64,000 nucleotides of DNA from an uncultured Ignavibacteria bacterium (GTDB lineage: Bacteria > Zixibacteria > MSB-5A5 > SM23-73-2): assembly GCA_964447175.1 (NCBI GenBank), contig CAYURP010000002.1, positions 937-64,936 on the forward strand. Reading direction: 5' to 3'. The notes beneath the pieces were generated by a model. The model was not told the DNA's origin. It did no database searches and saw only the letters and a list, made by a program, of their open reading frames with translations. Numbering within the stretch: position 1 is the first letter of the stretch; every line of letters begins with the position of its first letter. This document shows positions 7,071-28,378 of the stretch, piece after piece. The position numbers and the translations under genes are program-made.

Positions 7071-7525
7071 TGAACAGATTTAATATAATCAAATTGGCGG
7101 TGTTTTTCCTGGCGGTTTCTCTTTTGCTTTGCACAGGATTTTACGCTCAATCTTACTCCCAGAATTTCAAGTTGTTAACTGATGGTCTGGACAGCTTTGG
7201 TGGAAGATCATCATCCACAAATTTCTCCCTGAGAATAGGCTCAGGTGGTCAGCCGGGAGTTATCGGAACTTCCCAGGGTTCAAGTTTTTATGGACTTCAA
7301 GGCTATGTGAACACTGCGGCATTTGTGCACGGGGATGCTAACGCAGACGGGAACACAACCATCGCTGATGTGGTCTATCTGGTAAATTATCTTTTTAAAT
7401 CAGGTCCTGAACCAATCCCTCTGGAGACAGGGGATGTGAATGGCAACAATGAAGCCACTATAGCGGATGCGGTTTATCTGGTGAGCTATCTTTTCAGAGG
7501 AGGCAATCCACCGATTAATCTTTAG
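7071..7525 (+). CDS. small secreted protein with C-terminal type-I dockerin module
   Basis: Start chosen at the internal ATG with RBS ggagg. Signal-like N-terminus MNRFNIIKLAVFFLAVSLLLC. Two dockerin repeats, GDANADGNTTIADVVYLVNYLF and GDVNGNNEATIADAVYLVSYLF. Confidence 0.7.
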
Positions 7526-10630: not shown

Positions 10631-11790
10631 TGAAGGGACTTCTAAAATTTATAGTTTTATTCGGATTGATAATTCTTTCCGTTCAATGTGGAAAGAAAAT
10701 AAAGCTCCCCACTTCCCTGCCCTATTCTCAGGATAAAACCCTGGATACCACCTACGTTCAGATAGGGCCGGTTTGGGAGGAAGCTGGAGGGGTGTCCTTT
10801 AATAAACCCGAGGATGTGCATATCGGATATGATACTTATATTTACATCGCGGATAGCGAAAACGACCGCATTGTTAAGATGGACCGCAGGGGGAAATTCG
10901 TGGATTCCTATCCGGTTCCCCATCCCATATCCATAACCCAGGATCCTTTGTTGAGATTGGCAGCAGTATCCGGGGATGATATAATCTATCTCAAGGATAT
11001 TTTCGAGGCAGAGCCATTTCATGAGGTTTTTGCTTTTGATCAGTGGATGGATACTTTAATATTTGAAGTGGATTCAGTATTTGTAATAGATTCCACTTAT
11101 TATCCGGACTCGCTGGACACTATACTCGTTGGAGTGGATACCCTGGAGGTTCTGGTTGATACGGTCAGCGTATCCCTAAAGGCTATTGCTGCCACTCCCA
11201 TACCGGATGAGCAATATAACTTTTTTACCTGCGACCAAACCTGGCACACTTATACCGGAATTGGAGGAGAAAAACACCAGAGAGATGAGATCTCAATGTT
11301 TGTTCCTAAATTTGAGGACACAGTTCTGGTTTTTCAATATGTTGATATCGCAGTACCAAGGGGTGGGGACTTAGGGAAAACCATAAGCCCAACCGGGATT
11401 TTCACCTATCCCTATAAGAACCACTTTCGGATAGCCTTCTGTCAAGGGTATCCGACTAACAGTGCTCAAATACTAAATGGTGAAAACTTCTATCCGGTGA
11501 TTCCCAGAACGGATTTCACCGAAATATATTTTCCGGGGATGTTTGGAGTAGCTGAGGATATCACCGTGGACGAATTTGGTAATATCTACGTGGTGGATGC
11601 TTCCCGACACTCGGTTTTAAAGTTCAACCCCAAGGGGAGACTTCTTCTAAAATTTGGCTCCCTTGGTTCAGGAAACAAAGAATTCAACAGACCCAAAGGA
11701 ATAGCATACTATAACCAGACCTTATATGTGGCAGATACTGAAAACAACCGCATTCTGAGATTCCAGTTATCCACCGACGTAAGGAAATAA
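10624..11790 (+). CDS. NHL-repeat beta-propeller protein, probable lipoprotein or secreted
   Basis: 388 aa; signal peptide ending LSVQCG. NHL-type repeats ADSENDRIVKMD and ADTENNRILRF. A 7-nt overlap with the upstream OMP gene suggests an operon. Confidence 0.55.
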   Translation: MVMKGLLKFIVLFGLIILSVQCGKKIKLPTSLPYSQDKTLDTTYVQIGPVWEEAGGVSFNKPEDVHIGYDTYIYIADSENDRIVKMDRRGKFVDSYPVPHPISITQDPLLRLAAVSGDDIIYLKDIFEAEPFHEVFAFDQWMDTLIFEVDSVFVIDSTYYPDSLDTILVGVDTLEVLVDTVSVSLKAIAATPIPDEQYNFFTCDQTWHTYTGIGGEKHQRDEISMFVPKFEDTVLVFQYVDIAVPRGGDLGKTISPTGIFTYPYKNHFRIAFCQGYPTNSAQILNGENFYPVIPRTDFTEIYFPGMFGVAEDITVDEFGNIYVVDASRHSVLKFNPKGRLLLKFGSLGSGNKEFNRPKGIAYYNQTLYVADTENNRILRFQLSTDVRK

Positions 11791-12366: not shown

Positions 12367-13788
12367 ATGAAAAGCAAGACTATCATCACGATGGCGATAT
12401 CCTTGATTTTATTTGCTTTTTTAGCAACAACCTGGGCCGGAACGGATCAGGATCTGCAAGAGATAAGAAAAGCAATTAAGGAGAAAGGGGCAAAATGGGA
12501 GGCAGGCGATAACTGGGTTTTTCGTCTTTCCAAAGAGGAGAGGAAAAATCTAATGGGGGACCTCCCGGTAAAATATCTTCCCGCAAAGATCCCACAACCT
12601 TTATCTGGACTTTCGTTGCCCGACAGTTTTGACTGGCGAAGCTACAATGGATACAACTGGACCACCTCCATCAAGAATCAACTAACTTGTGGGAATTGCT
12701 GGGCTCATGCCTCCTGCGGTGCATTAGAGACGGTGGTTAAAATCACTTTAAATGAACCCAATCTATCAAATACATCCATCGACCTCTCAGAGTTGTATAT
12801 GACTTCTTGCAGTGGCAGGGGATGTGAACTGGGCTGGGATCAATCCAGCAGCCTTCAGTTTATAAAGGTTAATGGTGTCCCGGATCAAGTATGCTTCCCG
12901 GGTAATCTCCCTCCAGCTCCCTGTGGAGATACCTGTTCTAATAAATACAATAGATCTATATTCATAGAGGATTGGTATTATTATGGATCTGGGGTGTCTG
13001 TGGATTCAAATGATGTTAATGCCATAAAGGATAGGATATATAATCATGGTCCGGTTACGGTTCATTTTCTCGTTTACGAAGATTTTGGCGGTTATCAATC
13101 GGGGGTTTACGAGCACACTTGGGGTGATCCTGAAGACTGGCATGCGGTGAGCATGGTGGGATGGAATGATGTGGATAGCTGCTGGATCTGTAAAAATAGC
13201 TGGGGGCCAGATTGGGGTGATGACGGCTGGTTCAGGATAAGAATGATTCATGCTGGAGTTCATATAGAAGAGGAATGCTGGTATATGACGGTGGATTCCG
13301 CCTCCATCCCTCGGATTACAGTTACCTCACCTGTTGACGGAGATAAGTGGATGATGGGAACCCAGCATGACATCAAATGGATATCACCTTATTTTAGTGG
13401 ATATGTTAGAATCGATTATTCCACCAATGGCGGTTCGGACTGGGATAATATTACTGAGAGCACCTTAGACGATGGCAGCTTCAACTGGGTCAATATCCCG
13501 GACATCCCTTCGAGTAACTGTAAGCTTAAGATCTCCGATGCCAGCGATGGGATTCCCTGGGTCTTAAGTCGGGGAGCATTTTTTATCGTAACTTTGGGAG
13601 ATGTAAATGCTGATGGGGGTGTGGGCATAGCAGATGTGGTATATTTGGTGAACTATGTCTTGCGTAGCGGACCTGAGCCTTATATTATGGAAACCGGCGA
13701 TGTAAACTGCGACTGGTTAGTGAATATGAATGATATAGTCTTTCTGGTCAACTATATTTTAAGAAGTGGTCCTAAGCCGGAATGTTAA
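12367..13788 (+). CDS. papain-family (C1) cysteine protease with C-terminal dockerin module
   Basis: 473 aa; signal peptide; strong RBS ggaggag. Active-site Cys motif QLTCGNCWAHASCGALE, His region HAVSMVGWND and Asn/Trp region NSWGPDWGDDGWFRI. The C-terminus has two dockerin repeats, GDVNADGGVGIADVVYLVNYVL and GDVNCDWLVNMNDIVFLVNYIL. Confidence 0.85.
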   Translation: MKSKTIITMAISLILFAFLATTWAGTDQDLQEIRKAIKEKGAKWEAGDNWVFRLSKEERKNLMGDLPVKYLPAKIPQPLSGLSLPDSFDWRSYNGYNWTTSIKNQLTCGNCWAHASCGALETVVKITLNEPNLSNTSIDLSELYMTSCSGRGCELGWDQSSSLQFIKVNGVPDQVCFPGNLPPAPCGDTCSNKYNRSIFIEDWYYYGSGVSVDSNDVNAIKDRIYNHGPVTVHFLVYEDFGGYQSGVYEHTWGDPEDWHAVSMVGWNDVDSCWICKNSWGPDWGDDGWFRIRMIHAGVHIEEECWYMTVDSASIPRITVTSPVDGDKWMMGTQHDIKWISPYFSGYVRIDYSTNGGSDWDNITESTLDDGSFNWVNIPDIPSSNCKLKISDASDGIPWVLSRGAFFIVTLGDVNADGGVGIADVVYLVNYVLRSGPEPYIMETGDVNCDWLVNMNDIVFLVNYILRSGPKPEC

Positions 13789-13859: not shown

Positions 13860-14243
13860 TTATATGCTTACTTTTTCTTCTTTGCTCGCTTTTAATTCCT
13901 GGGTTTTCTTTAGAATTTCCCGGATCTCTTTTAGCTCAAAGGGTTTATGAATACAGGTAATAGCTCCCTCCTCCTGAGCTAATTCACTTAAAAGGTCGGG
14001 GAAACTATCCATCATAACTATAGTTATGTTCTTATCGAGGGTTCTTATCTTTTTTATCATTTCTAAGCCGTTTAATACAGGCATGTGTATATCAGAGAGG
14101 ATAAGGTCGAAGTTTGAATCTTTCACTTTATCCACAGCTTCCTTGCCGTTCTCTACTGCCACCACCTGATGCTGGTCGTCTTTGAGCACATCTGTTAGGA
14201 GATGTCTTATTATGGCTTCATCATCCACTACCAGAATTTTCAT
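13860..14243 (-). CDS. stand-alone response-regulator receiver (CheY-like)
   Basis: 127 aa. MKILVVDDE...D (phospho-acceptor region LILSDIHMP)...K. No output domain. Its start overlaps the stop of the upstream RR gene. Confidence 0.8.
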   Translation of the reverse strand: MKILVVDDEAIIRHLLTDVLKDDQHQVVAVENGKEAVDKVKDSNFDLILSDIHMPVLNGLEMIKKIRTLDKNITIVMMDSFPDLLSELAQEEGAITCIHKPFELKEIREILKKTQELKASKEEKVSI

Positions 14244-14641
14244 TATCCCAGCTTCCCCCTTACTAATTTGTTAACCAGAGCTCTAATTTGGTTTATCTGA
14301 AAGGGTTTGGCAATGTAATATGCAGCTCCCAATCTCTGACACTTTTGTTTGATCTGAGGGGTGGCGTATCCGGTTATGATTATCACTTCGGTTTTGGGAT
14401 TAACTTCTTTAGCCTTTCTCAAAACCTCAGTTCCATCCACCCCGGGCATTCGAATATCAGTGATTATGAGTTGGTACTTGTTTTGGGAGATTTTCTCCAA
14501 AGCCTCCTCTCCGTTGGCAGCTAAATCCAAATCATAACCCTCGTCCACAAAGACATCCAGAAGGAAACTCCTCATTATCTCCTCGTCATCTACGATGAGG
14601 ATCTTTTCCTCCTGCGTTAGTTTCTTCTTTTCCGGATTCAA
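14243..14641 (-). CDS. stand-alone response-regulator receiver (CheY-like)
   Basis: 132 aa. ILIVDDEEIMR...LIITDIRMPGVDG...IIITGYA. No output domain. Confidence 0.8.
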   Translation of the reverse strand: MNPEKKKLTQEEKILIVDDEEIMRSFLLDVFVDEGYDLDLAANGEEALEKISQNKYQLIITDIRMPGVDGTEVLRKAKEVNPKTEVIIITGYATPQIKQKCQRLGAAYYIAKPFQINQIRALVNKLVRGKLG

Positions 14642-14670: not shown

Positions 14671-16347
14671 TTATCTCCCTTTTTCAAAAACTGGCAACTC
14701 CTTGCTTTTATCAGACATTTTCTTGTGCTTTTGTGTTTCCGCCACAGGTATCACTACTCTAAAGGTGGTTCCTTTTCCCATTTCACTTTCCACCAGAATC
14801 TCTCCATTATGATCCCGGATGATCCCATAGCTTACCGAAAGTCCCAATCCTGTTCCCTCACCTGGTTTTTTAGTGGTGTAGAAGGGTTCAAATATTTTAC
14901 TGAGATTCTCCTGATTTATGCCGTAGCCGGTATCTGTGAATTCAATCTGGGTAAGCCTCTGGGAATCAAATTCCTTGACGCTGGTAGCTATTCTCAATAC
15001 TCCACCCTGGGGCATTGCGTGTAAGGCATTCAGGATAATATTGGTACAAACCTGCTGCAGTTGGTTGCTGCTACCCATAATGTGTGGAAGCGAATCAGCT
15101 AATTCTAGCACCAGTTTCACCTTGGCCATATCCAGTTGATGTCGGGTGAAGACCAAGGTGTCTTGCAATACTGTATTTAAATCTAAGGGTTCAAAGGAAT
15201 CTTCCACCGAGGCTCGGGCGAACTTCAAAAGATTCTGAACAATGGTCTTGCAGCGCTGAGATTGGCACTCTATATCCCTTAGATATTGGGTATAGGTGGA
15301 GACATCATCAGAGGTCAGATCCTGGGGGGTCTTCGAGCTTATTTTCTCAATAGCGAACTGGGAGTAGCCTAAGATACCGCCCAGAGGATTGTTCAATTCG
15401 TGGGCTACCCCGGCAGCCAACTGTCCCACTGCAGCCATCTTCTCGGTCTGAACCAGTAGAGACTGTGCCTCCTTGAGCTCTTTAGTTCTCTCCTCCACTT
15501 TTCTCTCCAGATTTCGGCTGTAGTCCTCAATCTGTTTTCTGGACTCCAAAAGTGAGGTGGTCATCTGATTGAAAGCTTGAGCCAGTTTTCCGATCTCGTC
15601 TTTCCGATCCACCTCTACCATCTGGGATAGATCGCCTTTGGCGATTCTTTCAGTTGCCCTAACAAGTTTATCCACCGGTTTTACGATCAGGTTTACCAGA
15701 GCGAAAGTCAGTAAAATAGCTATAGCTACCACCAGGGCTGTCAGGAGCACAACAATGTTTTTCATCCGGCTTATCTCATTTCTCATTGTATTCAAGGACA
15801 GACCTATTCTTGCCACCCCGATTTTTTTCTCCAAACGTTTAAGATCCATATCCTTATCAAAAATGACTCCCAGTTCTTCCTTAGGCATTTCGACTTTGGT
15901 TGTTTTTATAGAATAAGCTAAATCATAAAATCCAAACCTGCCTTCATGGGTAAAATGATACTCCCCGAAAAAACCTTCCCCATTCAGGGCTAATGTGATT
16001 ATTCCTGAATCCAGATCTTTCTCTCTATGAAACTTTCTCTGATCCATTTGAGCTAGTACCTTTCCCTCTCTGTCAAATATTTGAGTATAGATCACATCCT
16101 CCTCTCGGATCAATCCTTCGATCAGGGTAGCTAAAAGCTTTTCATTTTCAATTAACACGCCATATTCACTATTATAGGCTAAGTTCTTGACCAGAGATCT
16201 CCCTCGTTTCTCCAGTTCGCTCTGGATCAGGTCGCTTTGTTTTTGGATCAGAAACCCGCTCAAGACTATGGAGGTAAAGAGTATCAAAAAAGAGATGATC
16301 AGCACAAACTTGATTTTAAGTCCTAATTGAAGATTTGGTATTTTCAT
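14671..16347 (-). CDS. membrane sensor histidine kinase (periplasmic sensor domain, HAMP, HisKA, HATPase_c)
   Basis: 558 aa with two TM segments flanking a ~150-aa periplasmic region. H-box AAGVAHELNNPLGGI. N/G boxes IILNALHAM, DTGYGI, GTGLGLSVS. Confidence 0.85.
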   Translation of the reverse strand: MKIPNLQLGLKIKFVLIISFLILFTSIVLSGFLIQKQSDLIQSELEKRGRSLVKNLAYNSEYGVLIENEKLLATLIEGLIREEDVIYTQIFDREGKVLAQMDQRKFHREKDLDSGIITLALNGEGFFGEYHFTHEGRFGFYDLAYSIKTTKVEMPKEELGVIFDKDMDLKRLEKKIGVARIGLSLNTMRNEISRMKNIVVLLTALVVAIAILLTFALVNLIVKPVDKLVRATERIAKGDLSQMVEVDRKDEIGKLAQAFNQMTTSLLESRKQIEDYSRNLERKVEERTKELKEAQSLLVQTEKMAAVGQLAAGVAHELNNPLGGILGYSQFAIEKISSKTPQDLTSDDVSTYTQYLRDIECQSQRCKTIVQNLLKFARASVEDSFEPLDLNTVLQDTLVFTRHQLDMAKVKLVLELADSLPHIMGSSNQLQQVCTNIILNALHAMPQGGVLRIATSVKEFDSQRLTQIEFTDTGYGINQENLSKIFEPFYTTKKPGEGTGLGLSVSYGIIRDHNGEILVESEMGKGTTFRVVIPVAETQKHKKMSDKSKELPVFEKGR

Positions 16348-17378
16348 CTGTAAACCTCCTTGGCCACCTCTATGAGATCCGCGGGAATTTTTAAATTTAT
16401 CTGTTGCGCCGTGTTATAATTAAGGTAAAGGTAAATCACCCGGGGCACAGAAACCGGAATATACCTGGGCTCTCTGCCGGAAATAATCTCCAAAGCCATC
16501 TCTCCTGCCTGTTTTCCTACATCCTTGTAATCTGGAACTAAGGTGAAAAGCGCTCCCGCCTGCACGAATGAGGGTGTTAGCCCCATTAAGGGTAATCCAT
16601 TTCTCAAAGTGAAAAGCAGAATGAATTGAGTGGATTGGGGAGTAAAGATTAAAGGGTCAGCAACAGCCCAGATACCGTCCACCTCATTTTTCAGTTTTTC
16701 CAAAGTTGATGGTATCTCCTTCTCCGATTGAATAAGCCGGGCTATTAACTCTATCCCCAGATTCTTTGAAACCGATTGGGCTTCCTTAATAAGGGATTCT
16801 GTCTCTGAAGTATACACTACCCCCACGCTTTTCAGATGGGGAACGATAAGTTTAAACTTCTCCAGTTGAATCTTCAAAGGTACATCCAGGGAGGCCCCAG
16901 TTAAATTCCCCTCAGGAGAATTCATATCGGAGACAAAACCACTAACCACCGGATTAAGAACGGCGGAGAAGATTATGGGTGTATCCTTAATATATTTTGA
17001 GACCAACTCTGTTGACTTAGAGCCGATAGTCAGGATCAAATCTGGTTTTTTGGCTTTGATTTCCCCTAAGATTTTGTCTTTCCCCTGGGGATCCTCAGGT
17101 ATGGTGTATTCGATGAAATCAGCCGCCTCTCCACTCTGATTAATTATCTGTTTGAATCCCTTGATGGCCCTGAGATAGGATGTGAAGTCCTCTGTTTTCG
17201 CTATGATAATTTGCTTAGATTTGGCAGGTGATTCTGGAGCGAAAAGAAAGATAAAAAAAATAATAAACAGAATCAAATGCTTAACCGTCCTGGGGGATTT
17301 CTTGAATGTGCTCGAAATTTTTCTAATCCCGGTGGTATAACTTTTTCTCATCACTTGTTTAACTATTCTGGGCTTCAT
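16344..17378 (-). CDS. periplasmic substrate-binding protein of the ABC_sub_bind (PF04392-like) type, sensor-kinase accessory
   Basis: 344 aa; signal/TM then a periplasmic-binding-protein fold (TIGSKSTELV...GVVYTSE). A 4-nt overlap with the HK gene suggests translational coupling. The family assignment is from memory. Confidence 0.5.
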   Translation of the reverse strand: MKPRIVKQVMRKSYTTGIRKISSTFKKSPRTVKHLILFIIFFIFLFAPESPAKSKQIIIAKTEDFTSYLRAIKGFKQIINQSGEAADFIEYTIPEDPQGKDKILGEIKAKKPDLILTIGSKSTELVSKYIKDTPIIFSAVLNPVVSGFVSDMNSPEGNLTGASLDVPLKIQLEKFKLIVPHLKSVGVVYTSETESLIKEAQSVSKNLGIELIARLIQSEKEIPSTLEKLKNEVDGIWAVADPLIFTPQSTQFILLFTLRNGLPLMGLTPSFVQAGALFTLVPDYKDVGKQAGEMALEIISGREPRYIPVSVPRVIYLYLNYNTAQQINLKIPADLIEVAKEVYR

Positions 17379-17980: not shown

Positions 17981-20653
17981 TTGTTAATCCAAAAGAGATA
18001 CAGAGAAATTTTCATCTTTGCTTTTATAATGATTTTCTGGGCGTCCTGGGTGTGGGGCGGAACCTCAGGCAAGATATCCGGTACCCTGAGAGATAAAATC
18101 ACAGGAGAACCCTTGCCCGGTGCAACCATTATGATTTTGGGAACCAATATCGGTACCTCAACGGATGAAGATGGTGATTATTTTCTGATAAATATCCCCC
18201 CGGGCAACTATACTATTCAAGCAACTTTAATCGGATATGAGCCCGTTGTTCAAAAAGAGGTTAAAGTCCTTTTGGATCTGACCACTCCGGTGGATTTCAA
18301 ATTGATGTCCTCTCCCATTGAACTGGTCGAGGGTATAACGGTGATAGCTGAACGTCCGATGATTCAGAAGGATTTAACCTATTCCGGGAACATAGTGACC
18401 CGGGAGGAGTTAAATAACCTTCCTAATGCAGTAAACCTGCAGCAGGTGGTCTCCAATATGGCTGGAACGGTGGTGGACGAAGCTGGTTTGTTACATGTCC
18501 GGGGAGGCCGGGATGGAACGGTCAGCTATTTTCTGGACGGGGTAAATGTTCAGGATCCTTTTGTGGGGCAAGCTGGCACCCGGATTACCCCGGATGCCAT
18601 AGAGGAGCTGGATGTCACTACCGGAGGCTTCACTGCTGAGTATGGGGAGGCGCTCTCAGGAGTGGTAAGCGCAGTTACAAAGCGAGGAACCAACCTCTAT
18701 CAAGGAAAGATCAAAGCCTACGATGGCGCCACTCGCTCCTACGATGTTCACAACGGAAGTTTCAAAGATCTTGCCCGAAACGATAACCAATCGGTGATCT
18801 TAAACTTGGGAGGTCCTTTGACCTTCACCAACACTGATAGAGCCACGTTCTTTTTAACCAGTGAATATCTGAGAGACAAGGGCTACCTGCCTCATAACCA
18901 GGTGGAACTTTATTCCCATACTGGAAAGATAACCTTAAAACCCACCAATGATATCATAATCCTTCTTACCGGAAACTATTATCAGAGGGATCGACAGCGA
19001 TACCAACACCGGGACGGGAATAACTTCTCTTATGATTTCAACCTGGAGGGTCTGGGTAACTACCAAAATAAAGCCTATCATTATGGAGCTAAAATTACTT
19101 ATCCCGCTTCCCAAAACACCATATACACTATTAAGTTCAACCATTTCTTCACTGAAACCAAGCTTGCGCCAGAGCATCTCTTTGACCTGTACTGGAATCA
19201 GTGGCCTGGTTATTCGGTGGACTCCAATGGGGTTTACAATGGGACCATTCATACTCAAAACTACAACGTGGATCCAGAGTATTTTAACACCGGTTTCACT
19301 AAGGCTCCAGATTACTTCCCGGTCTATCATTATCGCAGGACCCAGTATAACAGCTTTGGTCTGGATTTGATCTCCCAGATAGATAAATATAATCAGATAA
19401 AATTAGGTTGGGAATACAGAGCCAACAGGCTCAAATGGGATGACAAACAATTCTTCAATATCAGACCGTACGGGGAACGCTATGTGGTCAATCCTGCGTA
19501 TGCAGCTCTGTATGTGCAGGATAAAATCGAGTTCCGGGAGATAATTTTAAATGCAGGCTTAAGATTGGATTATATGGATGCGGACATCGATTTCTGGAAT
19601 GATCCGGTGAAAAAAAATGAAAAAATACACACCAAGTCCAAAACTCAACTTTCACCTCGTCTGGGAATTTCGCATCCCATTTCTGATCTAACGGTTATTC
19701 ATTTCAACTACGGATATTACTTCCAGGTACCTCAGTATATGTATATGTTCACCAATTTGCAGGCTGATTTAAGCACCGGATATCCTCTGGTGGGCAATCC
19801 CAATATGGAGGTGGAAAAAACGGTTGCCTATGAGATGGGAATAAGCCATATGCTTAATCCAAACATCAGATTGAAGTTAACTGCCTATTATAAGGATCTG
19901 GGCAATCTGGCTACCACCCGAGAGGTGGTTTATGCTGGTGGTTCCTACACTCAGTACACAAATGCTGATTATGGATCAGTTAAAGGATTTGATTTGGTCC
20001 TGACTAAAATTGCCAGTGACCATCTCTCCGGAGGCATAAATTATACCTATTCCATAGCTAAGGGGAATGCTTCTTCAGTAACCGAGGGTTACTATGATTA
20101 TTTCACACAGGGAACGGAAGCTCCGGTCTGGCCGGTAAAAGAATATCCCCTCTCCTTTGATCAAAGGCACACTCTCTCGGCTGACATTGATTATCGAGTT
20201 CCCCGGGACTGGAAGGGTAAGTTTTTAGGTCTGACTATGCCCGGCGCCTGGGGAGTTAATGTGTTAACTCAATACGGAAGCGGATTACCTTATACCAAAA
20301 CCGATGACCAGGGGCATAGAGTTGGAATGCTAAACGAGGGTAGACTGCCCCCCACCTACCGGGTGGACCTGAAATTCAACAAGGATTTCTATTTCCTCAA
20401 GGATAGTGATCTTCATCTCACATTTTTCACCGAGGTGGAGAATCTATTTGATAGAAGTAATATCATTGATGTTTACCCTAATACCGGAAAACCGGATGAT
20501 GATGGAAGATATTATGAGCTGACTTCTGATCCGGATGGAGACGGACCTTTAACCCCTGAGGATGTGAATTGCTATTATAGGCTGTTGGCTAAGGATCCTC
20601 AGAACTACGACTCTCCCAGAAGGATCAGATGGGGATTTGAATTTGTGTTTTAA
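17981..20653 (+). CDS. TonB-dependent-receptor-like outer-membrane protein with CarboxypepD_reg N-domain (paralog of 7880-10630)
   Basis: 890 aa. TTG start with RBS ggagggtg. GKISGTLRDKITGEPLPGATIMILGTNIGTSTDEDGDYFLINIPPGNYTIQATLIGY is CarboxypepD_reg. Plug and barrel follow, ending ...RWGFEFVF. Confidence 0.75.
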   Translation: MLIQKRYREIFIFAFIMIFWASWVWGGTSGKISGTLRDKITGEPLPGATIMILGTNIGTSTDEDGDYFLINIPPGNYTIQATLIGYEPVVQKEVKVLLDLTTPVDFKLMSSPIELVEGITVIAERPMIQKDLTYSGNIVTREELNNLPNAVNLQQVVSNMAGTVVDEAGLLHVRGGRDGTVSYFLDGVNVQDPFVGQAGTRITPDAIEELDVTTGGFTAEYGEALSGVVSAVTKRGTNLYQGKIKAYDGATRSYDVHNGSFKDLARNDNQSVILNLGGPLTFTNTDRATFFLTSEYLRDKGYLPHNQVELYSHTGKITLKPTNDIIILLTGNYYQRDRQRYQHRDGNNFSYDFNLEGLGNYQNKAYHYGAKITYPASQNTIYTIKFNHFFTETKLAPEHLFDLYWNQWPGYSVDSNGVYNGTIHTQNYNVDPEYFNTGFTKAPDYFPVYHYRRTQYNSFGLDLISQIDKYNQIKLGWEYRANRLKWDDKQFFNIRPYGERYVVNPAYAALYVQDKIEFREIILNAGLRLDYMDADIDFWNDPVKKNEKIHTKSKTQLSPRLGISHPISDLTVIHFNYGYYFQVPQYMYMFTNLQADLSTGYPLVGNPNMEVEKTVAYEMGISHMLNPNIRLKLTAYYKDLGNLATTREVVYAGGSYTQYTNADYGSVKGFDLVLTKIASDHLSGGINYTYSIAKGNASSVTEGYYDYFTQGTEAPVWPVKEYPLSFDQRHTLSADIDYRVPRDWKGKFLGLTMPGAWGVNVLTQYGSGLPYTKTDDQGHRVGMLNEGRLPPTYRVDLKFNKDFYFLKDSDLHLTFFTEVENLFDRSNIIDVYPNTGKPDDDGRYYELTSDPDGDGPLTPEDVNCYYRLLAKDPQNYDSPRRIRWGFEFVF

Positions 20654-20687
20654 TCTTTTTTAACCCTTTTCAGGAGGGAAGGTAAGT

Positions 20688-23357
20688 ATGTTTCAAAGAA
20701 AATCTATTGGCTTCTGGATTTATTCCTGGGGTTTTTTGATCTCCCTAATTCTTTTTAGCAGCAGCGGATTGTCCAAAACTACCTCTTCTTTGATTCCTCC
20801 GTCTGAGATTCAGGACCAGATCATTCAGAACAAGGGTAATATCGCAACCACAATTCAGAATTGGGGTCAGATCGGAGGACAGAGCCATCTGGGCAAACCC
20901 TCAGGGGAGTGGCCTAAGGGATCGGGTCATAACTACCTGGCAGAGATCAAATACTGGATGGGTGCCATCAAGCTCAGCGGCGATACGGTGGTAGCTAATA
21001 CCGAAGACGATTTCATGCCTATTGCTATGCCTCTCTTTGGAGAGGAGAGCTACAAGATCCGTCTTTCCACCGACCCCTCAACCTACGATTATGATTCATA
21101 TGATACGGTGGGTTTGGGAATTGGCAAACCCTCCTATGGGTGGAAAGTATGGGATTTGGAGAAGGACTCCTGGGAGTATAACAAGGTCTGGAACTTATCC
21201 TCGGGTCAATTTGAAGGAGCTGGTCCAATTTCCTTACAGGAAAGCCACTACCGGTTTAATGATGCTAATAGCGGCATAAGTGTTTTGGATTTGGAGATGA
21301 CTCAGACTATTTATCAGTGGAACTACAGCTACAACCAGGATTTTCTATTCGTGGTATTAGAGATCAAAAACAACAGTTCCGATAATTACTCTGATTTTGC
21401 TTTTGGTCTTTACTGCGATTTCGATGTGGGGGGGTATCATCCACCTACCGGGGAAAACGGGAGATTGGGTGATCTGGTGGAATTTGATTCTGCTTTGAAT
21501 TTGGCTTGGACCTATGATCAGGATGGTTATGATCCTGGTTGGGGACCCCTGGTAAAGACCGGAATGATGGGGACCAAATATATAGAGACGCCGGACAATA
21601 TCGGAATGACTGCCTTCAGAACCGGCCAATGGGAATATCTGCCGGATGATGATCCGGGGAAATATGAATATATTAATAGCCAGCAATTCGATCAGAGTTT
21701 ACCCCCCACAGACCAATACTATATTCAATGCACTCGGGGGATAGATTTGAGGTCCGGCAAAACAGTACGAGTGGTTTTTGCGCTTATTGCTGGTTATGAT
21801 GAGAAGGATTTAAAGGATAAAGCCAATATGGCTCAAACGGTATATGAGAACTATTTTATCGGTCCGGAACCACCCAAGCCATCTAATCTGGTCGCTACGC
21901 CGGGGAATGGTTTGGTAAAGCTCCTGTGGGACGATGTTTCTGAAAATTCGGTGGATCCTCTAAGCGGGATTGTAGATTTTAGGGGTTATAAGATCTATAG
22001 AAGCACAGATATGGGTTTGACCTGGGGAGATTTGGTGAAAAATCCAGATGGGAGCCTGGGTCCGGATTACATACCCATTGCAATGTTTCAGAAGGAAAAT
22101 GAGGAGGACATCCTACCGCATACCTATATCGACAGAAACCTGACCAATGGGATAGAATGCTGGTATACGGTGGTGGCTTTTGACGGGGGTGACACCACGG
22201 TTCCCATAGAGCCTTTACAGAATGCTTATGGTCGACCGGGTGAAGATCCCAACTGCCAGTTCGCCATACCTCGTACTGATCCTGCTGGATATTATCCCAT
22301 AGACGTAACTGTGGATCACAACTATTATGGATTGGAGAGCAAAAGCGATGGATGGGTAGTGCCAATGGTTTTCGATCAGGGCGCTTTGACGGGACACGAT
22401 TATAAAGTTACCTTTTCCGAGGATTATCTATCTACCTACTGGCATTTGATTGATATTTCCAACAGTGATACGGTTTTAAAAGCACAGACCGAACAGTCCG
22501 GTGATACGGTGAAATACCAGGTGGTGGATGGAATCCAGGTGATCGTCACCAACGGTCTTAAGGATCCCAGCTACTACTACCAGACTGAGTTTGCCACCGG
22601 ATCAGATACCACCTTACATATGGGATATATGTATGGGTCGATGGGAGAGACTTTTGGATTTCCTACGGGCGGAGACATCCATTTTCGCTCCACCTACGAA
22701 TTCAGATTCACCGCGGAAGGCTCTCAGGGGTTCAGCTTTCACGATGGTGTTACTCCCGTTGATCTCCCCTTTGAAGTCTGGAACGTAACCTTGGAGCAAA
22801 AGGTTTTTGCTGAGATTTATGATCGAGGAGATGGGGTATGGGACCCGGATAAGAAAGATTATATAATTATCGTTAACTATCCGTATGATGGAGAACCACA
22901 TCCCGAAGCTTTTCCCTTTTATGACGTTTGGTTCTTCAGATTCGACACCACGGATACCCAATATTCAACAGGCGATGTTTTCAGAGTTGGGGGGGCATCA
23001 CTCAATTCCCCGGATGATGAATTTTTCTTCAGTTCTCCAGGGATAGACGACAGACAAGCAAGAAGGGAACTGGCTAATGTTAAGGTTGTACCTAATCCCT
23101 ATATCGCCCGTGCCGATTGGGAAACCACAGACGGGATGAGGAAGATTCAATTCACCCATCTGCCCGATATCTGCACCATAAGAATTTACACCTTAGCCGG
23201 GGATCTAGTTCAGACCCTTATACATGATAATGGTTCTGGATCAGAAGATTGGGATCTTTTATCCGAAAATCAACAGGGAATAAGCTCAGGAGTCTATTTC
23301 TATCACGTTTCATCAAAATATGGTGAAAAGATCGGCAAATTCGCTATTATCAAATAA
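20688..23357 (+). CDS. large secreted protein with FN3-like domain and T9SS type-A C-terminal sorting domain (CTD)
   Basis: 889 aa; signal peptide. The C-terminal ~85 aa, VKVVPNPYIAR...CTIRIYTLAGDLVQTL...ISSGVYFYHVSSKYGEKIGKFAIIK, match the Por_Secre_tail pattern (VYPNP...IxIYdxxGxLV...SGvYFy...KfxiiK). Confidence 0.65.
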   Translation: MFQRKSIGFWIYSWGFLISLILFSSSGLSKTTSSLIPPSEIQDQIIQNKGNIATTIQNWGQIGGQSHLGKPSGEWPKGSGHNYLAEIKYWMGAIKLSGDTVVANTEDDFMPIAMPLFGEESYKIRLSTDPSTYDYDSYDTVGLGIGKPSYGWKVWDLEKDSWEYNKVWNLSSGQFEGAGPISLQESHYRFNDANSGISVLDLEMTQTIYQWNYSYNQDFLFVVLEIKNNSSDNYSDFAFGLYCDFDVGGYHPPTGENGRLGDLVEFDSALNLAWTYDQDGYDPGWGPLVKTGMMGTKYIETPDNIGMTAFRTGQWEYLPDDDPGKYEYINSQQFDQSLPPTDQYYIQCTRGIDLRSGKTVRVVFALIAGYDEKDLKDKANMAQTVYENYFIGPEPPKPSNLVATPGNGLVKLLWDDVSENSVDPLSGIVDFRGYKIYRSTDMGLTWGDLVKNPDGSLGPDYIPIAMFQKENEEDILPHTYIDRNLTNGIECWYTVVAFDGGDTTVPIEPLQNAYGRPGEDPNCQFAIPRTDPAGYYPIDVTVDHNYYGLESKSDGWVVPMVFDQGALTGHDYKVTFSEDYLSTYWHLIDISNSDTVLKAQTEQSGDTVKYQVVDGIQVIVTNGLKDPSYYYQTEFATGSDTTLHMGYMYGSMGETFGFPTGGDIHFRSTYEFRFTAEGSQGFSFHDGVTPVDLPFEVWNVTLEQKVFAEIYDRGDGVWDPDKKDYIIIVNYPYDGEPHPEAFPFYDVWFFRFDTTDTQYSTGDVFRVGGASLNSPDDEFFFSSPGIDDRQARRELANVKVVPNPYIARADWETTDGMRKIQFTHLPDICTIRIYTLAGDLVQTLIHDNGSGSEDWDLLSENQQGISSGVYFYHVSSKYGEKIGKFAIIK

Positions 23358-23378
23358 CCTTAAAAAAGGGAGAAAAAA

Positions 23379-24389
23379 ATGGCTAAGAGAATTCTACTAA
23401 CTTTAATCATTCTGACTCTGGTGCTGAGCCACTCCGGCGTGGCAGAGGAATTCTCCAAGGTGGGGAGTGTGGGAGCGCAGTTTTTGAAAATAGGCGTGGG
23501 TGCAAAGTATGTGGGAATGGGTGAAGCATCGGTGGCTTGCGTGAATGATGCCTATGCTATGTACTGGAACCCAGCCGGTCTGACTCAGCTTTCCCAGAAT
23601 AATCTACGCTTCACCAATGTGGATTGGATAGATGATGTCCAGCTGAATTATGTGTCTTTTGGTAAACCCTGGGGCAGCTCCTCTGCCTGGGGAATCAGTA
23701 TGACCGTTCTGACCATGGGGGATATGGAAGTTACCACGGTGCAGGAACCAGAAGGGACTGGCGAGAAGTTCTCCGCCTCGGATTACTCGATAGCTTTAGG
23801 TTATGCCAGAAAACTTACAGATAGATTTTCTCTGGGACTGAGTTTCAAATACCTGTGGGAGAGGATCTCAGAGGAATCTGCATCCGGATTTGCTTTTGAT
23901 TTCGGGACTCTGTTTTTCACCGGCATTCAGAATTTAAGGATGGGTATGAACATCTCCAATTTGGGCCCGGAGATGAAATTAGATGGACCGGAGCTGGATG
24001 TGTTTTATACCCCCTATCCCGAGAACACCAACTATGATGGGGTGAAAAGCAAGCTGGCTGTGGAACCCTATGATCTGCCGCTAACTTTTAGAGTGGGATT
24101 GGCATATGATCTTTACCCATCGGCTGATTCCAGGCTCACTCTATCCAGCGAAGCCAAACATCCCAATGATAACCTGCAGCAGGTGAGCTTTGGCGGAGAA
24201 TGGGTTTGGAAGGAAATGGTGTCCTTGAGAACCGGATATAAGCTGAACTATGAGGAAGAGGGTTTAACCTTAGGGGGTGGATTGAAGCTGAAAACCGGAG
24301 AAAGAACCACCCTGGAGCTGAACTATGCCTGGGCTGATTTCAACCGGCTACAGAGCGTTCATCGCTTTTCTGTGGGTTTTGACTTTTAA
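23379..24389 (+). CDS. PorV/PorQ-family-like outer-membrane beta-barrel (T9SS shuttle-like)
   Basis: 336 aa; signal peptide. The N-terminal GAQFLKIGVGAKYVGMGEASVACVNDAYAMYWNPAGL motif (GxxxLGMG...ayaiYWNPAGL) is characteristic of the PorV/PorQ/UPF0164 barrel family. It has alternating amphipathic strands and a C-terminal F. It is adjacent to a CTD-bearing cargo gene. Confidence 0.55.
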   Translation: MAKRILLTLIILTLVLSHSGVAEEFSKVGSVGAQFLKIGVGAKYVGMGEASVACVNDAYAMYWNPAGLTQLSQNNLRFTNVDWIDDVQLNYVSFGKPWGSSSAWGISMTVLTMGDMEVTTVQEPEGTGEKFSASDYSIALGYARKLTDRFSLGLSFKYLWERISEESASGFAFDFGTLFFTGIQNLRMGMNISNLGPEMKLDGPELDVFYTPYPENTNYDGVKSKLAVEPYDLPLTFRVGLAYDLYPSADSRLTLSSEAKHPNDNLQQVSFGGEWVWKEMVSLRTGYKLNYEEEGLTLGGGLKLKTGERTTLELNYAWADFNRLQSVHRFSVGFDF

Positions 24390-24430
24390 GGTGGACCATT
24401 ATAAAAGGGCGAGGATTTAAAAAGTTAATA

Positions 24431-24517
24431 AAAAAGGTGGCTCCCTTGCCAGGGTAGAGACGGTGGGAATTTAGACAAGGGAGCCTAATTGGGGCTTTAT
24501 GAAGTCAAATCTATAAT
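24431..24517 (+). repeat. copy 1 of ~88-nt structured element (candidate sRNA/regulatory RNA)
   Basis: aaaaaggtggctcccttgcc...aagggagcc...ggggctttatgaagtcaaa. An internal inverted repeat ggctcccttgc/gcaagggagcc forms a long stem. About 80% identical to copy 2. Confidence 0.45.
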
Positions 24518-24677
24518 ATGCTGAACCTTATTTTTTGTCAAGAAAAAATTATACTCGTTTAATATTTTACCAGAGGAATATCAACTCAAGAATTATTAGA
24601 GTCGCATATCAGACCTCGATTCAGGAGAATCTTCAAGAGAAGATCTGGCAATAGAACAACAATATAAAAAAGTATAT

Positions 24678-24765
24678 AAAAAGAGGTGGCTCCCTTGCTA
24701 GGGTAGAGACGCGGGGCTTTTCGCAAGGGAGCCGGTTGGGGCTTTATGAAGTCAAACTAATTATA
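24678..24765 (+). repeat. copy 2 of ~88-nt structured element
   Basis: aaaaagaggtggctcccttgctagggtagagacgcggggcttttcgcaagggagccggttggggctttatgaagtcaaa. Same stem and conserved 3' block as copy 1. Confidence 0.45.
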
Positions 24766-25032
24766 GCTATATAAAAATTTTTGACAATCGGGTAACAACC
24801 TTAATTTCGGTTAAAGATATCCTTTTTTCATAATAAAAAACGACCTCAAATGGAAAAAGTTTGAACTTTTTTAAAGAAAAGACCTCCCCAGGGGTTATAT
24901 CTACCTTGAATCTCCTATACTAGCCTTTTAAAACTAAAAAGCGATTCTCCCCATCATCCTTTATACATAATAATTGCCTTATCCCTTCCTGGAGTGATCA
25001 AATGTTAAGTTCCCTCCTTAGAGATAATAAAA

Positions 25033-25105
<73 letters not shown>

Positions 25106-25537
25106 CAACTTATTCTTTTATCGACCCGATATAAATTTCTTAAACAAAATAAAATATTAAAAATCAGTGTCAAGAGAAAATTGGACTCTTCATATATTTT
25201 AATTGTTACTGGCAGCAACTGAGGACACAAAAGAGTACAACCTTCCATTAAAAAGAGAAGATTTCAATAAATCATAGCCTTAAGTAGAAGGTATCAGGAT
25301 TCGGTTAGACACAATTTGAAGCATATCTATTTGGAGGAGGCCACTACAACAAATGGTTCCTTGGGATAAGGCGGCATTTGTGGAATGCTCACATATTGAA
25401 CATTAACCCTTTTTGGGTATTGCCGATAAACAAAGCAACAGGAGGAGGTGCGTAGTATATTACTGTGAATTTAACTACTTAGTATACCAATATTAAAAAC
25501 CTAAAATTTACGAAAGGAGGTGAAAGGGGTGAAAAAC

Positions 25538-26044
25538 ATGCGCACACTTTTTGAGAACCGAGCTGGTTTTACACTGGTTGAGCTGGCCATCGGTCTGGTG
25601 ATCATCGGTCTTTTGATCGGAGCTATTCTGGGAGGTGCTCAGATGATCAAGAACGCCAAGATCAAAAGGCAGATCAATGACCTTCAAGGTCTCTATGGCG
25701 CAGTGTACACCTATTTCGATAGGTTCCTGCAGCTGCCAGGTGACTATAATGCTGATGGTTATTTCGACATTGACTCCGTGGTGTGGAACGATATCGAGAG
25801 TGAGGAGTTAGCTTACGAGGCCAAGAGAAGCCCGTTTGGAGCTAAATACTATTTTGGTTCCGATACGCTTGCAACACCAGCAGCATACAGGAATGGTAAT
25901 TACGTCCTGGTAAGCCTTCCGGTGGATGTAGCGGAGAATGTGGACAAGCAGCTCGACGATGGAATTGATAGCACCGGTATCGTGACATCAGATAGTCCTT
26001 ATACCGGCACAGGGAAGATAGATGTTTATTACTTCTTAGACTAA
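25538..26044 (+). CDS. type IV (pseudo)pilin with prepilin leader, likely major pilin of the downstream MSHA-type system
   Basis: ATG at 25538 preferred over upstream GTG. Leader MRTLFENRAG | FTLVELAIGLVIIGLLIGAIL is the class-III signal with cleavage G|F and Glu+5. Confidence 0.8.
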   Translation: MRTLFENRAGFTLVELAIGLVIIGLLIGAILGGAQMIKNAKIKRQINDLQGLYGAVYTYFDRFLQLPGDYNADGYFDIDSVVWNDIESEELAYEAKRSPFGAKYYFGSDTLATPAAYRNGNYVLVSLPVDVAENVDKQLDDGIDSTGIVTSDSPYTGTGKIDVYYFLD

Positions 26045-26142
26045 AGGATAATAGTCGATTTCAAGGTGGGGGACACTGCTCAGGTGGTGTCCCCTTCCCG
26101 AATTTCACAGGAAATGCCAGATACTTTTTTTGAGAAAACTAT

Positions 26143-26994
26143 ATGAGCTTCTCATATTTCAGGATAGCTCATGAACACCCCTATAGGGGTTTCACCCTTC
26201 TGGAGTTAGCCATAGTCATGGCCATTTTCGGATTATTGACAGCATCCGCTGTAGGACTTTATGGGGCCATGTCCAAACGCAATCGAGAAGTGAAAACCAA
26301 AGACGAAATGGAAAACATAAGAGAGGCAGTGCTGGGCTATTATCGGAACTATCTGTTTTTACCCGCTCCGGAAGCCGGGTATGTTGTTCCCATTGACGAG
26401 CTGGATCTTCCACCCACAGCCCAGAAGGATGAGATCTATAAAGGAAAGTATTATGCTTACATAGCGACCAATGCCGGGTCACCATTCTCCGAGCTGTTAG
26501 TGGACGGACAGTCCATAGGAGAAACAGCTATAGTTTTGATATCCAGCGGAGCCAACTTGAGATTTGAGGAGGAAAATTCCGATCTCGGCGACGGGGAATA
26601 TTCTCAGGAGGGAACCACTGCAGATTTCGATGATATACTTATATGCCTTTCTGGCAACGAGCTGGGGTCCTCCATTGCTTGGAGAAGGGAGATCGAGGAG
26701 GAAGTGGCAGTGTTGAATCGGGCTGCAGAGATATTGGCGAAAAACGATGATGATGGAGATGGGTTTGTAGATGAGGATTCCACCGACCCTTCAGGCAACT
26801 CAGATAGCTACACTGACTGGGATCTGGTGAGTGGAACAGGGTCTTTAGTCAATGCCGGGCTTTTGTGGAATCCCGATCACATAGTGGACCCATGGGGAAC
26901 TGAATATTGTTGGGATTTTTTTAATCATGAATTTTACTCAGCCGGCTCCAACAGGACCGATGAAGGCTGTGGTGGGGATGATATCTGCCCTTAA
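26143..26994 (+). CDS. larger prepilin-type protein (minor pilin or pseudopilin)
   Basis: 283 aa. ...YRG|FTLLELAIVMAIFGLLTASAV prepilin motif, then an Asp/Glu-rich region (DDDGDGFVDEDSTDPSGNSD) resembling a Ca-binding loop. Confidence 0.65.
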   Translation: MSFSYFRIAHEHPYRGFTLLELAIVMAIFGLLTASAVGLYGAMSKRNREVKTKDEMENIREAVLGYYRNYLFLPAPEAGYVVPIDELDLPPTAQKDEIYKGKYYAYIATNAGSPFSELLVDGQSIGETAIVLISSGANLRFEEENSDLGDGEYSQEGTTADFDDILICLSGNELGSSIAWRREIEEEVAVLNRAAEILAKNDDDGDGFVDEDSTDPSGNSDSYTDWDLVSGTGSLVNAGLLWNPDHIVDPWGTEYCWDFFNHEFYSAGSNRTDEGCGGDDICP

Positions 26995-27009
26995 AAGGAG
27001 CAAAATCAA

Positions 27010-28377
27010 ATGCTTTTGTGCGTGGATTTGACAAGTAAGAAAGCCAAGGTAACCGGGATAAATAAGGGGAAAAGATCTTTCAGAGTTGTGGAATCGCTGG
27101 AATTTGACATATCTAAGCTGGAAACAGCCTTTGGAGAATATCTTAAGAGCAGATCCGGGGACATTGACGAAATAAGGGTATCCGGAGCTCTGGAGAATAC
27201 CTTTCATAAGATCTTCATTATTCCCGATCTGAAGGGAAAGATGTTTACGGCTGCCCTGTATTCTGAGGTGACAAAAGCCTTTGGAGTTATTTATCAATTC
27301 AAATACCTGGATATGGGTGAGGTCCCCGGTCCTGGTAATAAAATTAACCGAAAGATAATGTCAGCAGGTATAAAAAGAGATAACTTGGAAGAGCTCTCAC
27401 GACTGTTTAACGACTCCCCAACAAAACCGGATATGTTTACCACATATCCGGTAGCTGTGCATGCGGCTATTCAAAAACTCGAACTCATATCTGAGGAACC
27501 CCTGGGTTTTCTGGAGCTGGACTATCCCACCAGTCGTATAGTTATCTTCAAAGGGGATGAAATAAGAGTGTCTCGGGAGATCAATGTTCTGGAGGAGGAA
27601 AAAGACCCTGACCGATCAACTCTGGCTAAGGATATCTATCGAACCCTGCTTTTCTACACGGAGAACTATCCTAACGAGTTAGTGAAGAGAATAGTTTTGG
27701 CAGGAAACTCAGCCACCTCAAAAACTGTTGAGGCTTTGACTAAAAAAACAGGAGCTGAGATCATTCCCTTTTCACCCGAGGGCATGATCGAGAAATCAGA
27801 TAAAATATCCCCCGTTCCCCCTGGATGCTTGGGGCTGGCACTGTTAGATCCCGATAGCTTCCCCTTTGAATTCGTACCCATGTCGATTCAGGAGAAAAGA
27901 AAGATAAAAAAGGCATTAACCCTCTCCTTTAGTGCTATTCTGGTTATTGTCCTGATTCTTGCTTTAGCCATTTCTCGGTTTTCTCTGGATTTGAGAAATC
28001 TGAATAATTACCACAGGGGGATTAAAGGTGGAATCAAGATGAAGGAGGATCGGCTGAAAGAGCTGGGTTTGGAGTTTGTCTCTCATTCCATTGAAACCAC
28101 CCAACCCCCATGGTCTGAGGTGCTTCTGGAGATGGCAGCGGCAGTGCCGTCGGGGGTTGTTTTTGAATCCTTTGTCTTGAAGAAGACAAATAAGGTGTGG
28201 AGGGGGGAAATCGTAGGCTTGGCAGAGGGGAAAGACGAGATCAGCTCGCTTTTGCTGGTGGAAAGCTTACAAAATAATTTCAATCAGTCCCCCCTTTTTA
28301 AGGATGCTAAGCTGTTGGAAAAAGAACTGCAAGGTAAAAAAGTTGAGTTCAAAATTAATTATCAATTGAATATGTGA
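27010..28377 (+). CDS. PilM/PilN-like fusion (MshI/MshJ-like): actin-like cytoplasmic domain + TM + periplasmic domain
   Basis: 455 aa with a single TM helix ALTLSFSAILVIVLILALAISRF around residue 300. Position is first in an Msh-like gene order. The family call is inferred from architecture and synteny. Confidence 0.45.
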   Translation: MLLCVDLTSKKAKVTGINKGKRSFRVVESLEFDISKLETAFGEYLKSRSGDIDEIRVSGALENTFHKIFIIPDLKGKMFTAALYSEVTKAFGVIYQFKYLDMGEVPGPGNKINRKIMSAGIKRDNLEELSRLFNDSPTKPDMFTTYPVAVHAAIQKLELISEEPLGFLELDYPTSRIVIFKGDEIRVSREINVLEEEKDPDRSTLAKDIYRTLLFYTENYPNELVKRIVLAGNSATSKTVEALTKKTGAEIIPFSPEGMIEKSDKISPVPPGCLGLALLDPDSFPFEFVPMSIQEKRKIKKALTLSFSAILVIVLILALAISRFSLDLRNLNNYHRGIKGGIKMKEDRLKELGLEFVSHSIETTQPPWSEVLLEMAAAVPSGVVFESFVLKKTNKVWRGEIVGLAEGKDEISSLLLVESLQNNFNQSPLFKDAKLLEKELQGKKVEFKINYQLNM

Positions 28378-28378
28378 T

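Follow-up and report, generated by a model that had tools for sequence, protein, structure and literature searches.

The DNA analysed here is a 64,000-nt stretch of contig CAYURP010000002.1 (assembly GCA_964447175.1, positions 937 to 64,936 of the forward strand) from a bacterium that is placed in the Zixibacteria by GTDB and labelled an uncultured Ignavibacteria bacterium; the whole stretch is referred to below as the window. Positions 17981–24389 of the window form one operon that encodes an outer-membrane module, consisting of a TonB-dependent transporter, a large surface protein (here called X) and a dedicated barrel. An earlier note on this DNA had described the second and third genes as a cargo protein of a secretion system of type IX (T9SS), carrying a C-terminal domain (CTD) for sorting, next to a barrel of the PorV/PorQ type. 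The genes of the operon and of the divergent sensor module beside it are as follows.

17981–20653, plus strand: TonB-dependent receptor, first gene of the operon, 890 aa, TTG start, ribosome-binding site AGGAGG (from Pfam)
20688–23357, plus strand: protein X, second gene of the operon, 889 aa, ATG start (from the open reading frame and homologues)
23073–23354, plus strand: CTD of X, aa 796–889 (from predicted strands, alignment and hhalign)
23379–24389, plus strand: PorV/PorQ-family barrel, third gene of the operon, 336 aa, ATG start (from NF033709 and fold comparison)
16344–17378, minus strand: periplasmic protein of the ABC_sub_bind family (PF04392), first gene of the divergent sensor module (from Pfam, 145.5 bits)
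14671–16347, minus strand: sensor histidine kinase with sCache_4, HAMP, HisKA and HATPase_c domains (from Pfam)
13860–14641, minus strand: two single-domain response regulators, of 132 aa at 14243–14641 and of 127 aa at 13860–14243 (from the open reading frames)

That the three genes constitute a single operon follows from the short gaps between them (34 nt between the receptor and X, 21 nt between X and the barrel), from the Shine-Dalgarno site before each gene (AGGAGG before the receptor, GGGAG in the gap between X and the barrel) and from the overlap of reading frames in many orthologous loci. The two genes named in the earlier note are open reading frames exactly where it had placed them, with 816 database homologues for X and 4471 for the barrel; the gap between them, given there as 22 nt, measures 21 nt. 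The pair that it recognised is real, and its account of the unit left out the upstream receptor at 17981–20653 and the regulatory module. The response regulators are homologous to genes annotated PF00072 in loci L001 and L002 of the orthologue group. The three-gene cassette has no functional annotation in the libraries searched.

Orthologues of X with 47–89% identity were found in 124 species genomes in a scan of one genome per GTDB species, the genomes being labelled Zixibacteria, GN15 or, in ENA, "uncultured Ignavibacteria". The named database homologues of X all come from Zixibacteria, are equal to it in length and are 54–89% identical. Complete Zixibacteria genomes with the operon include CP070796.1, CP070839.1, LS998015.1, OY969724.1 and OY760907.1. 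Clustering of 80 species-representative loci and four others yielded 84 loci with X, 82 with the barrel and 79 with the receptor, the absences being located at contig ends. The gene order is always receptor, X, barrel. Wherever the flanks of a Zixibacteria locus are intact, the receptor lies directly before the pair, and X and the barrel are adjacent in every examined locus that is not cut by a contig end, so the pairing that the earlier note had proposed is not accidental. Genes of the sensor module lie beside the operon in 60–66 of the loci (the ABC_sub_bind protein in 66, the histidine kinase in 65).

Two further observations concern these loci. In 32 Zixibacteria loci (L001 13865–15451, L002 13824–15401 and 30 others) the barrel is followed by a fourth gene on the same strand, whose product is a secreted protein of about 530 aa that lacks a CTD and is matched by neither Pfam nor NCBIfam models. 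This gene is missing from the window, where repeats resembling small RNA genes and a tRNA-Phe gene take its place. Many third-party metagenome-assembled genomes (MAGs) in ENA that carry the Zixibacteria-type operon at 50–72% identity (L008, L011, L016 and others) are labelled "uncultured Ignavibacteria", which is probably an artefact of taxonomy mapping; in the NCBI taxonomy Zixibacteria belong to the FCB group.

The product of the third gene has a signal peptide, the motif YWNPAGL at aa 62–68 (with the core WNPA), which the earlier note had pointed out, and a C-terminal Phe. It passes the cutoffs of the NCBIfam PorV/PorQ family model NF033709 (235.3 bits, cutoff 90) and of the Pfam PorV model PF19572 (51.6 bits, cutoff 27). 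The equivalog cutoffs for PorQ (NF033711, 113.5 bits against 220) and PorV (NF033710, 105 bits against 250) are not reached, and neither are the cutoffs for PorV2 (86 bits against 325) and for Toluene_X, the FadL family (PF03349, 22.4 bits against 29.7). A search of the PDB with a profile of barrel orthologues matched PorV of Flavobacterium johnsoniae (6h3i_F) with E = 6e-28, compared with E = 0.014 for TodX. The AF2 model of the barrel (pLDDT 80.4) has 14 strands, and in Foldseek comparisons it is closest to PorV (8gl6_F, TM score 0.71, E = 1.5e-17; 6h3i_F, TM score 0.70), with FadL next at 0.60. The protein is a member of the PorV/PorQ family that is neither PorV nor PorQ by the equivalog models and is not FadL. 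The earlier assignment is therefore upheld at the level of the family and not for the PorV shuttle itself or for PorQ, and the FadL/OmpP1 membership that had been named as grounds for abandoning it was looked for and not found. Scores among barrels range from 132 to 271 bits between the barrel of the window and cassette barrels of other loci, compared with 57 bits for F. johnsoniae PorV and 50 for a PorV-family paralogue in locus L064, which places the barrel in a clade specific to the cassette.

The paralogue in L064 (16612–17619, minus strand) is a second PorV-family barrel in a Zixibacteria genome; it passes the PorV-family cutoff at 92.9 bits and is nearest to PorV2 (102 bits, cutoff 325), which implies several PorV-family paralogues per genome. 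A large protein followed by a barrel was considered as a general theme of Zixibacteria and rejected, as the protein upstream of this second barrel has dockerin repeats at its C-terminus where a CTD would be expected. Two adjacent paralogous genes in the window, at 3415–4890 and 4955–6952, encode proteins of 491 and 665 aa whose N-termini weakly resemble the N-domain of a Bdellovibrio mosaic adhesive trimer fibre; the 665-aa protein has a weak match to the PorV Pfam model at aa 369–406.

Protein X begins with MFQRKSIGFWIYSWGFLISLILFSSSGLS, by inspection a Sec signal peptide without a lipobox cysteine, and residues 2–28 form a helix in the AF2 model. The signal peptide is followed by a beta-supersandwich (aa ~41–392), an FN3-like domain (~393–515), two beta-sandwich domains (~516–795) and the CTD (~796–889). 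The model (pLDDT 78.6) is built of sandwiches, contains no propellers and shows seven strands in the CTD, within aa 799–887. The passenger of X is not covered by any Pfam domain, all matches to hidden Markov models (HMMs) falling within the last ~100 residues, and a sequence-profile search of the PDB with X gave nothing significant. The supersandwich is the most conserved part of the protein, with 23% of its columns invariant.

The CTD of X reads, in order, VVPNPY, the insertion ARADWETTDGM, F-HLP, CTIRIYTLAGDLV, GVYFYHV and GKFAIIK, in agreement with the C-terminal sequence quoted in the earlier note. It has the structural characteristics of type A CTDs: a length of about 80–100 aa, a predicted seven-stranded beta-sandwich, the PNP and GxY motifs and a terminal basic residue. 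Comparison of the X CTD with canonical CTDs of the same loci by hhalign gives a probability of 95.7% (E = 9e-9), with a 9-residue insertion. Identification as a T9SS-type CTD is thus borne out, while the description of the tail as a textbook Por_Secre_tail is not: its scores are below the curated cutoffs of TIGR04183 (20.9 bits, cutoff 23), PF18962 (14.3, cutoff 27) and CHU_C (18.9, cutoff 27), whereas other Zixibacteria proteins have canonical type A CTDs that exceed the TIGR04183 cutoff, with 38 and 48.8 bits. Against the same model the tails of X-family proteins from six further loci score 0–16.3 bits and are below the cutoff in every phylum tested. The best T9SS-family match of X is to the C-terminus of PorZ (NF052228; 24.7 bits against an equivalog cutoff of 260, at model positions 666–755 only). 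Among 40 orthologues, the tail matches PorZ in 35, TIGR04183 in 34 (E < 0.01) and the PorU tail in 13. Since 34 of the 40 match TIGR04183 at this level and PGAP names some X orthologues "T9SS type A sorting domain-containing protein", the family is borderline for that model.

In the same 40 orthologues V801, P802, P804, Y805, G868, Y870, G883, F885 and A886 are invariant, and K889 is present in at least 90%. The X-family tails of every group sampled have VVPNPY in place of YPNPFNP, an insertion of 9–21 aa after strand 1, the motifs F-HLP and CTIRIY, and a G(K/R)FA(V/I)IK end. In alignments from the same or related loci the insertion is missing from the canonical type A CTDs of neighbouring genes. 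As the X tails are below the HMM cutoffs and at the same time profile-homologous to canonical CTDs, the CTD of X is, judged by its sequence, a distinct, conserved and divergent type-A-like subclass. An HMM of the X CTD found no second tail of this kind in the window, L001 or L002.

The cassette extends beyond the Zixibacteria. A profile search of X against 1.84 billion cluster representatives (50%-identity clusters) returned 10210 relatives at E ≤ 1e-3, with 1138 at the stricter limit of E ≤ 1e-30; the majority are 900–1400 aa long. The named relatives come from Delongbacteria, Cloacimonetes, Calditrichaeota, KSB1, WOR-3 and a MAG labelled "Bacteroidetes", and all are annotated "hypothetical protein". 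We inspected seven loci outside the Zixibacteria orthologue group (L085–L091, among them L087 from Calditrichaeota, L088 from WOR-3 and L090 labelled "Bacteroidetes"). Six of the seven (L085–L090) contain a CarboxypepD_reg receptor, an X homologue and a barrel of ~335–349 aa in the same order, with one extra CTD protein inside the cassette of L088. In these six full cassettes the scores to the window proteins are 318–465 bits for the receptor, 133–277 bits for X (collinear) and 224–271 bits for the barrel. In the seventh locus, L091, X and a homologous barrel (132 bits) overlap and no receptor is adjacent.

Four of these loci (L087–L090) carry genes for starch or alpha-glucan metabolism, in various combinations of CBM20 proteins with a canonical Por_Secre_tail, GH13 amylases, GDE_C/Glucodextran_C, GH57, a maltose-type ABC transporter and TrmB. 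Locus L086 has only a weak CBM20 match, on a protein with a canonical CTD, and the genes past the cassette in L085 encode an alanine racemase, an MR_MLE epimerase-family protein and Amidase_3. In Zixibacteria the neighbours of the operon are regulatory, not catabolic. The Caldithrix genome paper does not describe the cassette, and in the Cloacimonadota paper T9SS appears nowhere but among the references. We also observed that the X proteins of the starch branch (L086–L090) have an insertion of ~200 aa in the supersandwich, rich in DNDGD, DDGIDNDGDWD and GEGDGxPT repeats that resemble calcium-binding motifs of the thrombospondin type 3 kind.

The receptor matches PF13620 (CarboxypepD_reg, 69.6 bits), PF07715 (Plug, 40.1 bits) and PF00593 (90.7 bits) and has a 22-strand-type barrel, an arrangement like that of Oar and SusC. 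A CarboxypepD_reg extension followed by Plug and a TonB_dep_Rec barrel is the Oar-type architecture of TonB-dependent transporters as defined previously (PMC6434023), and several cassette receptors match PF25183. Against the SusC/RagA model TIGR04056 the receptor scores 61.8 bits, in its N-terminal region only, well under the cutoff of 368, and no SusD-family match was found among the window proteins scanned. The other receptor of the window reaches 144–196 bits to cassette receptors of other phyla, compared with the 318–465 bits of the receptor in the operon.

This second CarboxypepD_reg receptor, at 7880–10630, is overlapped by a gene at 10624–11790 for a 388-aa NHL-repeat beta-propeller protein; the two genes are followed by tRNA-Leu and not by a PorV-like barrel. 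Dockerin type I domains occur in the window in a papain-family protease (12367–13788) and a small protein of 186 aa (6965–7525), and in related genomes in SBBP-type propeller proteins (L064 19711–22314 and L085 3285–4808). These dockerins suggest a cohesin–dockerin-like form of surface display alongside the one based on CTDs.

The private PorQ-like barrel, the private PorZ-like CTD, the co-encoded transporter and the sensor module together lead us to propose that the operon specifies an uptake module resembling those for polysaccharide utilisation, in which a cognate PorQ-like barrel holds the T9SS-type protein X beside its transporter. We put the probability of this proposal at roughly 0.55. 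X would be exported by Sec and would cross the outer membrane by a T9SS-type route. Its CTD would be recognised by the co-encoded barrel and not by a general PorV, and by analogy with the PorZ CTD on PorQ and with type B CTDs on PorP/SprF it may stay on that barrel, so that X would be held at the cell surface next to the transporter in a physical complex. The supersandwich, FN3 and beta-sandwich domains may capture a polymer, probably a glycan, which the TonB-dependent transporter would import, and expression would be controlled by the neighbouring genes for the binding protein, kinase and response regulators. The assembly would be a functional analogue of the pair formed by SusC and a surface-glycan-binding protein, with a CTD–barrel anchor replacing the lipid anchor. 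Retention on a barrel has precedent, in that PorQ keeps hold of the CTD of PorZ, and shielding of CTDs from cleavage has been proposed as a role of cognate PorV-like barrels (PMC10202324).

Several observations weigh against the proposed capture and import. No binding site or catalytic residues were identified in X, and the supersandwich is a generic fold. Contacts of X with the barrel and with the receptor we infer from gene linkage alone. The seven loci inspected outside the Zixibacteria orthologue group are a small sample, and one of them, L091, has the pair without a receptor beside it. The Zixibacteria orthologue is single-copy, phylum-wide and located beside a two-component system, not beside glycoside hydrolases, a pattern that also fits a housekeeping role in the envelope. 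Finally, no T9SS core gene (SprA/Sov, PorK/L/M/N, PorU, PorT) was found with Pfam and NCBIfam among the ~46 window proteins scanned, nor in the reachable flanks at both contig ends.

The earlier note had taken the pair as support for an FCB-type secretion system in this organism. The sampled non-module genes of the 80 orthologous loci included no SprA-sized open reading frame and no T9SS core match. Other Zixibacteria proteins carry canonical CTDs above the cutoff, and L002 also encodes a Por_Secre_tail protein; these tails make a T9SS in the phylum plausible and are not proof of it. A full-text search of the available literature returned no paper joining Zixibacteria with T9SS or type IX secretion; searching for Zixibacteria with secretion terms brought up nothing relevant, and neither did the TRIP paper. 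It has been reported that T9SS is possibly present in several non-Bacteroidota FCB phyla, Zixibacteria not being named (PMC11285876).

Among the other explanations, the one that survives best is that X and the barrel are parts of the secretion machinery, functional analogues of the PorZ–PorQ arm of the T9SS attachment complex. The similarity of the tails and the phylum-wide single-copy conservation agree with such a role. We nevertheless consider it unlikely, as the two beta-propellers of PorZ are missing from X, the match to NF052228 is confined to positions 666–755 and Foldseek gives a TM score to PorZ of 0.11–0.12. A TonB-dependent receptor almost always precedes the pair, which in other phyla lies inside starch loci; with this linkage X and the barrel behave like a substrate-specific module. 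The 10210 diverse clusters of X relatives are also more typical of a repeatedly recruited module than of a core machine part.

It is somewhat less probable still that X is an ordinary T9SS cargo encoded next to the general PorV shuttle of the organism, which would serve all type A cargos. Passing the family cutoffs of Pfam and NCBIfam, PorV as the nearest solved structure, homology of the X tail to type A CTDs and the type A names given by PGAP to some orthologues are all in line with this explanation. It is difficult to reconcile with the 105 bits of the barrel against a PorV equivalog cutoff of 250 and its membership in a cassette-specific clade, or with a pair that stays the same from phylum to phylum and varies together with a special CTD subclass. 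Furthermore, neighbouring proteins with canonical CTDs have no barrel of their own, a further PorV-family paralogue exists in at least one Zixibacteria genome (L064), and the upstream receptor is conserved along with the pair.

Just as improbable, in our estimate, is a self-sufficient triad of receptor, X and barrel, in which X would get to the cell surface by way of its own TonB-dependent and PorQ-like barrels, or aided by them, without SprA or PorKLMN. If true, FCB candidate phyla would have in it a minimal, and possibly ancestral, kind of surface display that depends on a CTD. We give slightly less credence to the explanation that the receptor is the export conduit, an Oar-like transporter that secretes X for the barrel to receive, the unit being independent of the T9SS translocon. 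The Oar architecture, the PF25183 matches of several cassette receptors, the tight gene linkage and the lack of T9SS core genes in the sequence available are consistent with such export. The same architecture, however, dominates the ordinary importers of Bacteroidetes (PMC6434023), and relatives of the cassette are found in starch loci with inner-membrane sugar transporters, which points to import. In addition, L091 has the X–barrel pair with no receptor adjacent, and the existence of a T9SS is suggested by proteins with canonical type A CTDs that Zixibacteria genomes encode elsewhere. Hardly credible at all is a FadL-type channel for hydrophobic compounds, functionally unlinked to X: sub-threshold Toluene_X and UPF0164 matches, the name "long-subunit fatty acid transport protein" given by JGI to some orthologues and a second-best structural match to FadL (TM score ~0.6) are outweighed by the Toluene_X score below its cutoff, by the preference of the profile search for PorV over TodX and by the invariant adjacency to X.

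The surroundings of the operon contain additional features. Just downstream of the barrel, on the opposite strand, lie two tandem copies of a putative small RNA gene of ~75–85 nt (24424–24545 and 24655–24792, minus strand). The candidates have sigma-70-like promoters (TTGACA-17-TATTAT at 24541–24513 and TTGTCA-16-TATAAT at 24787–24760) and a conserved transcribed core beginning UUUGACUUCAUAAAGCCCCAA, and they carry a GC-rich hairpin of 11–12 bp with a U run after it (-23 kcal/mol, z about -4). They belong to no Rfam family, and both copies are kept at the same place in another species (L005 13777–14111). About 1.1 kb past the operon and tRNA-Phe, a cluster resembling type II secretion systems or type IV pili extends over 25520–36201; it contains two N_methyl pseudopilins, a PilN-like protein, a secretin, AAA_22, a TPR protein, GspE/PilB and GspF/PilC. 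A gene at 46082–48466 (minus strand) encodes a 794-aa fusion of a domain resembling daptide-type HExxH intramembrane metalloproteases (214 bits, cutoff 300) with an HlyD-type periplasmic adaptor.

The proposal that a cognate barrel holds X beside its transporter bears on current models of T9SS, in which type A CTDs are normally all handled by PorV and genetic linkage to cognate PorP/SprF carriers is a feature of type B substrates (PMC12618676; PMC10994853). Private carriers are thus expected for type B tails only, whereas here a type-A-like subclass always occurs with a PorQ-like barrel of its own. The carriers of the cassette are several FCB and neighbouring candidate phyla without cultured models. 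If the proposal is true, it would indicate how FCB bacteria outside the Bacteroidota assemble surface machines for capture that resemble SusCD but need no SusD lipoprotein, and it would offer a way into the function of a family whose more than 10,000 clusters are labelled "hypothetical protein". The X CTD and the barrel also represent a compact, testable pair for CTD–carrier specificity.

The cassette is a variation on known kinds of system, namely cognate T9SS carriers and SusC-type uptake loci. The attachment complex of Porphyromonas gingivalis (PorZ–PorQ and PorU–PorV) offers the parallel of a secreted protein whose CTD is bound and kept by a 14-strand barrel of the PorV/PorQ family. The CTD of X is no less similar to that of PorZ than to generic type A tails, and the barrel, with 336 aa, has the size of PorQ, to which its score is slightly higher than to PorV. 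In contrast to PorZ, X has a passenger without propellers; its linkage partners are a TonB-dependent receptor and, in other phyla, genes for starch use. Neither X nor the barrel reaches the equivalog cutoffs for PorZ, PorQ or PorV. To our knowledge, porZ and porQ of P. gingivalis are not described as an adjacent gene pair.

A substrate gene followed by the gene of its own carrier barrel is also the arrangement of type B substrates and PorP/SprF, as in SprB–SprF of F. johnsoniae, where the carrier decides the final surface localisation (PMC12618676). The present cassette differs in that the CTD of X is type-A-like and the barrel belongs to the PorV/PorQ and not to the PorP/SprF family. With Oar of Myxococcus xanthus the receptor shares the architecture of CarboxypepD_reg extension, Plug and barrel; Oar, in contrast, acts in protein secretion, an export role not shown here for the receptor, and has no PorV-like partner. 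The SusC/SusD loci of Bacteroidota are similar in co-encoding a CarboxypepD_reg transporter with a surface protein and a sensor or regulator, and relatives of the cassette occur among amylases and CBM20 proteins. They differ in that the receptor is below the SusC/RagA cutoff, the scanned window proteins include no SusD homologue and the hosts are non-Bacteroidota FCB phyla. Given that X has a T9SS-type CTD and no lipobox cysteine, it is probably anchored through the barrel, unlike the SusD lipoproteins.

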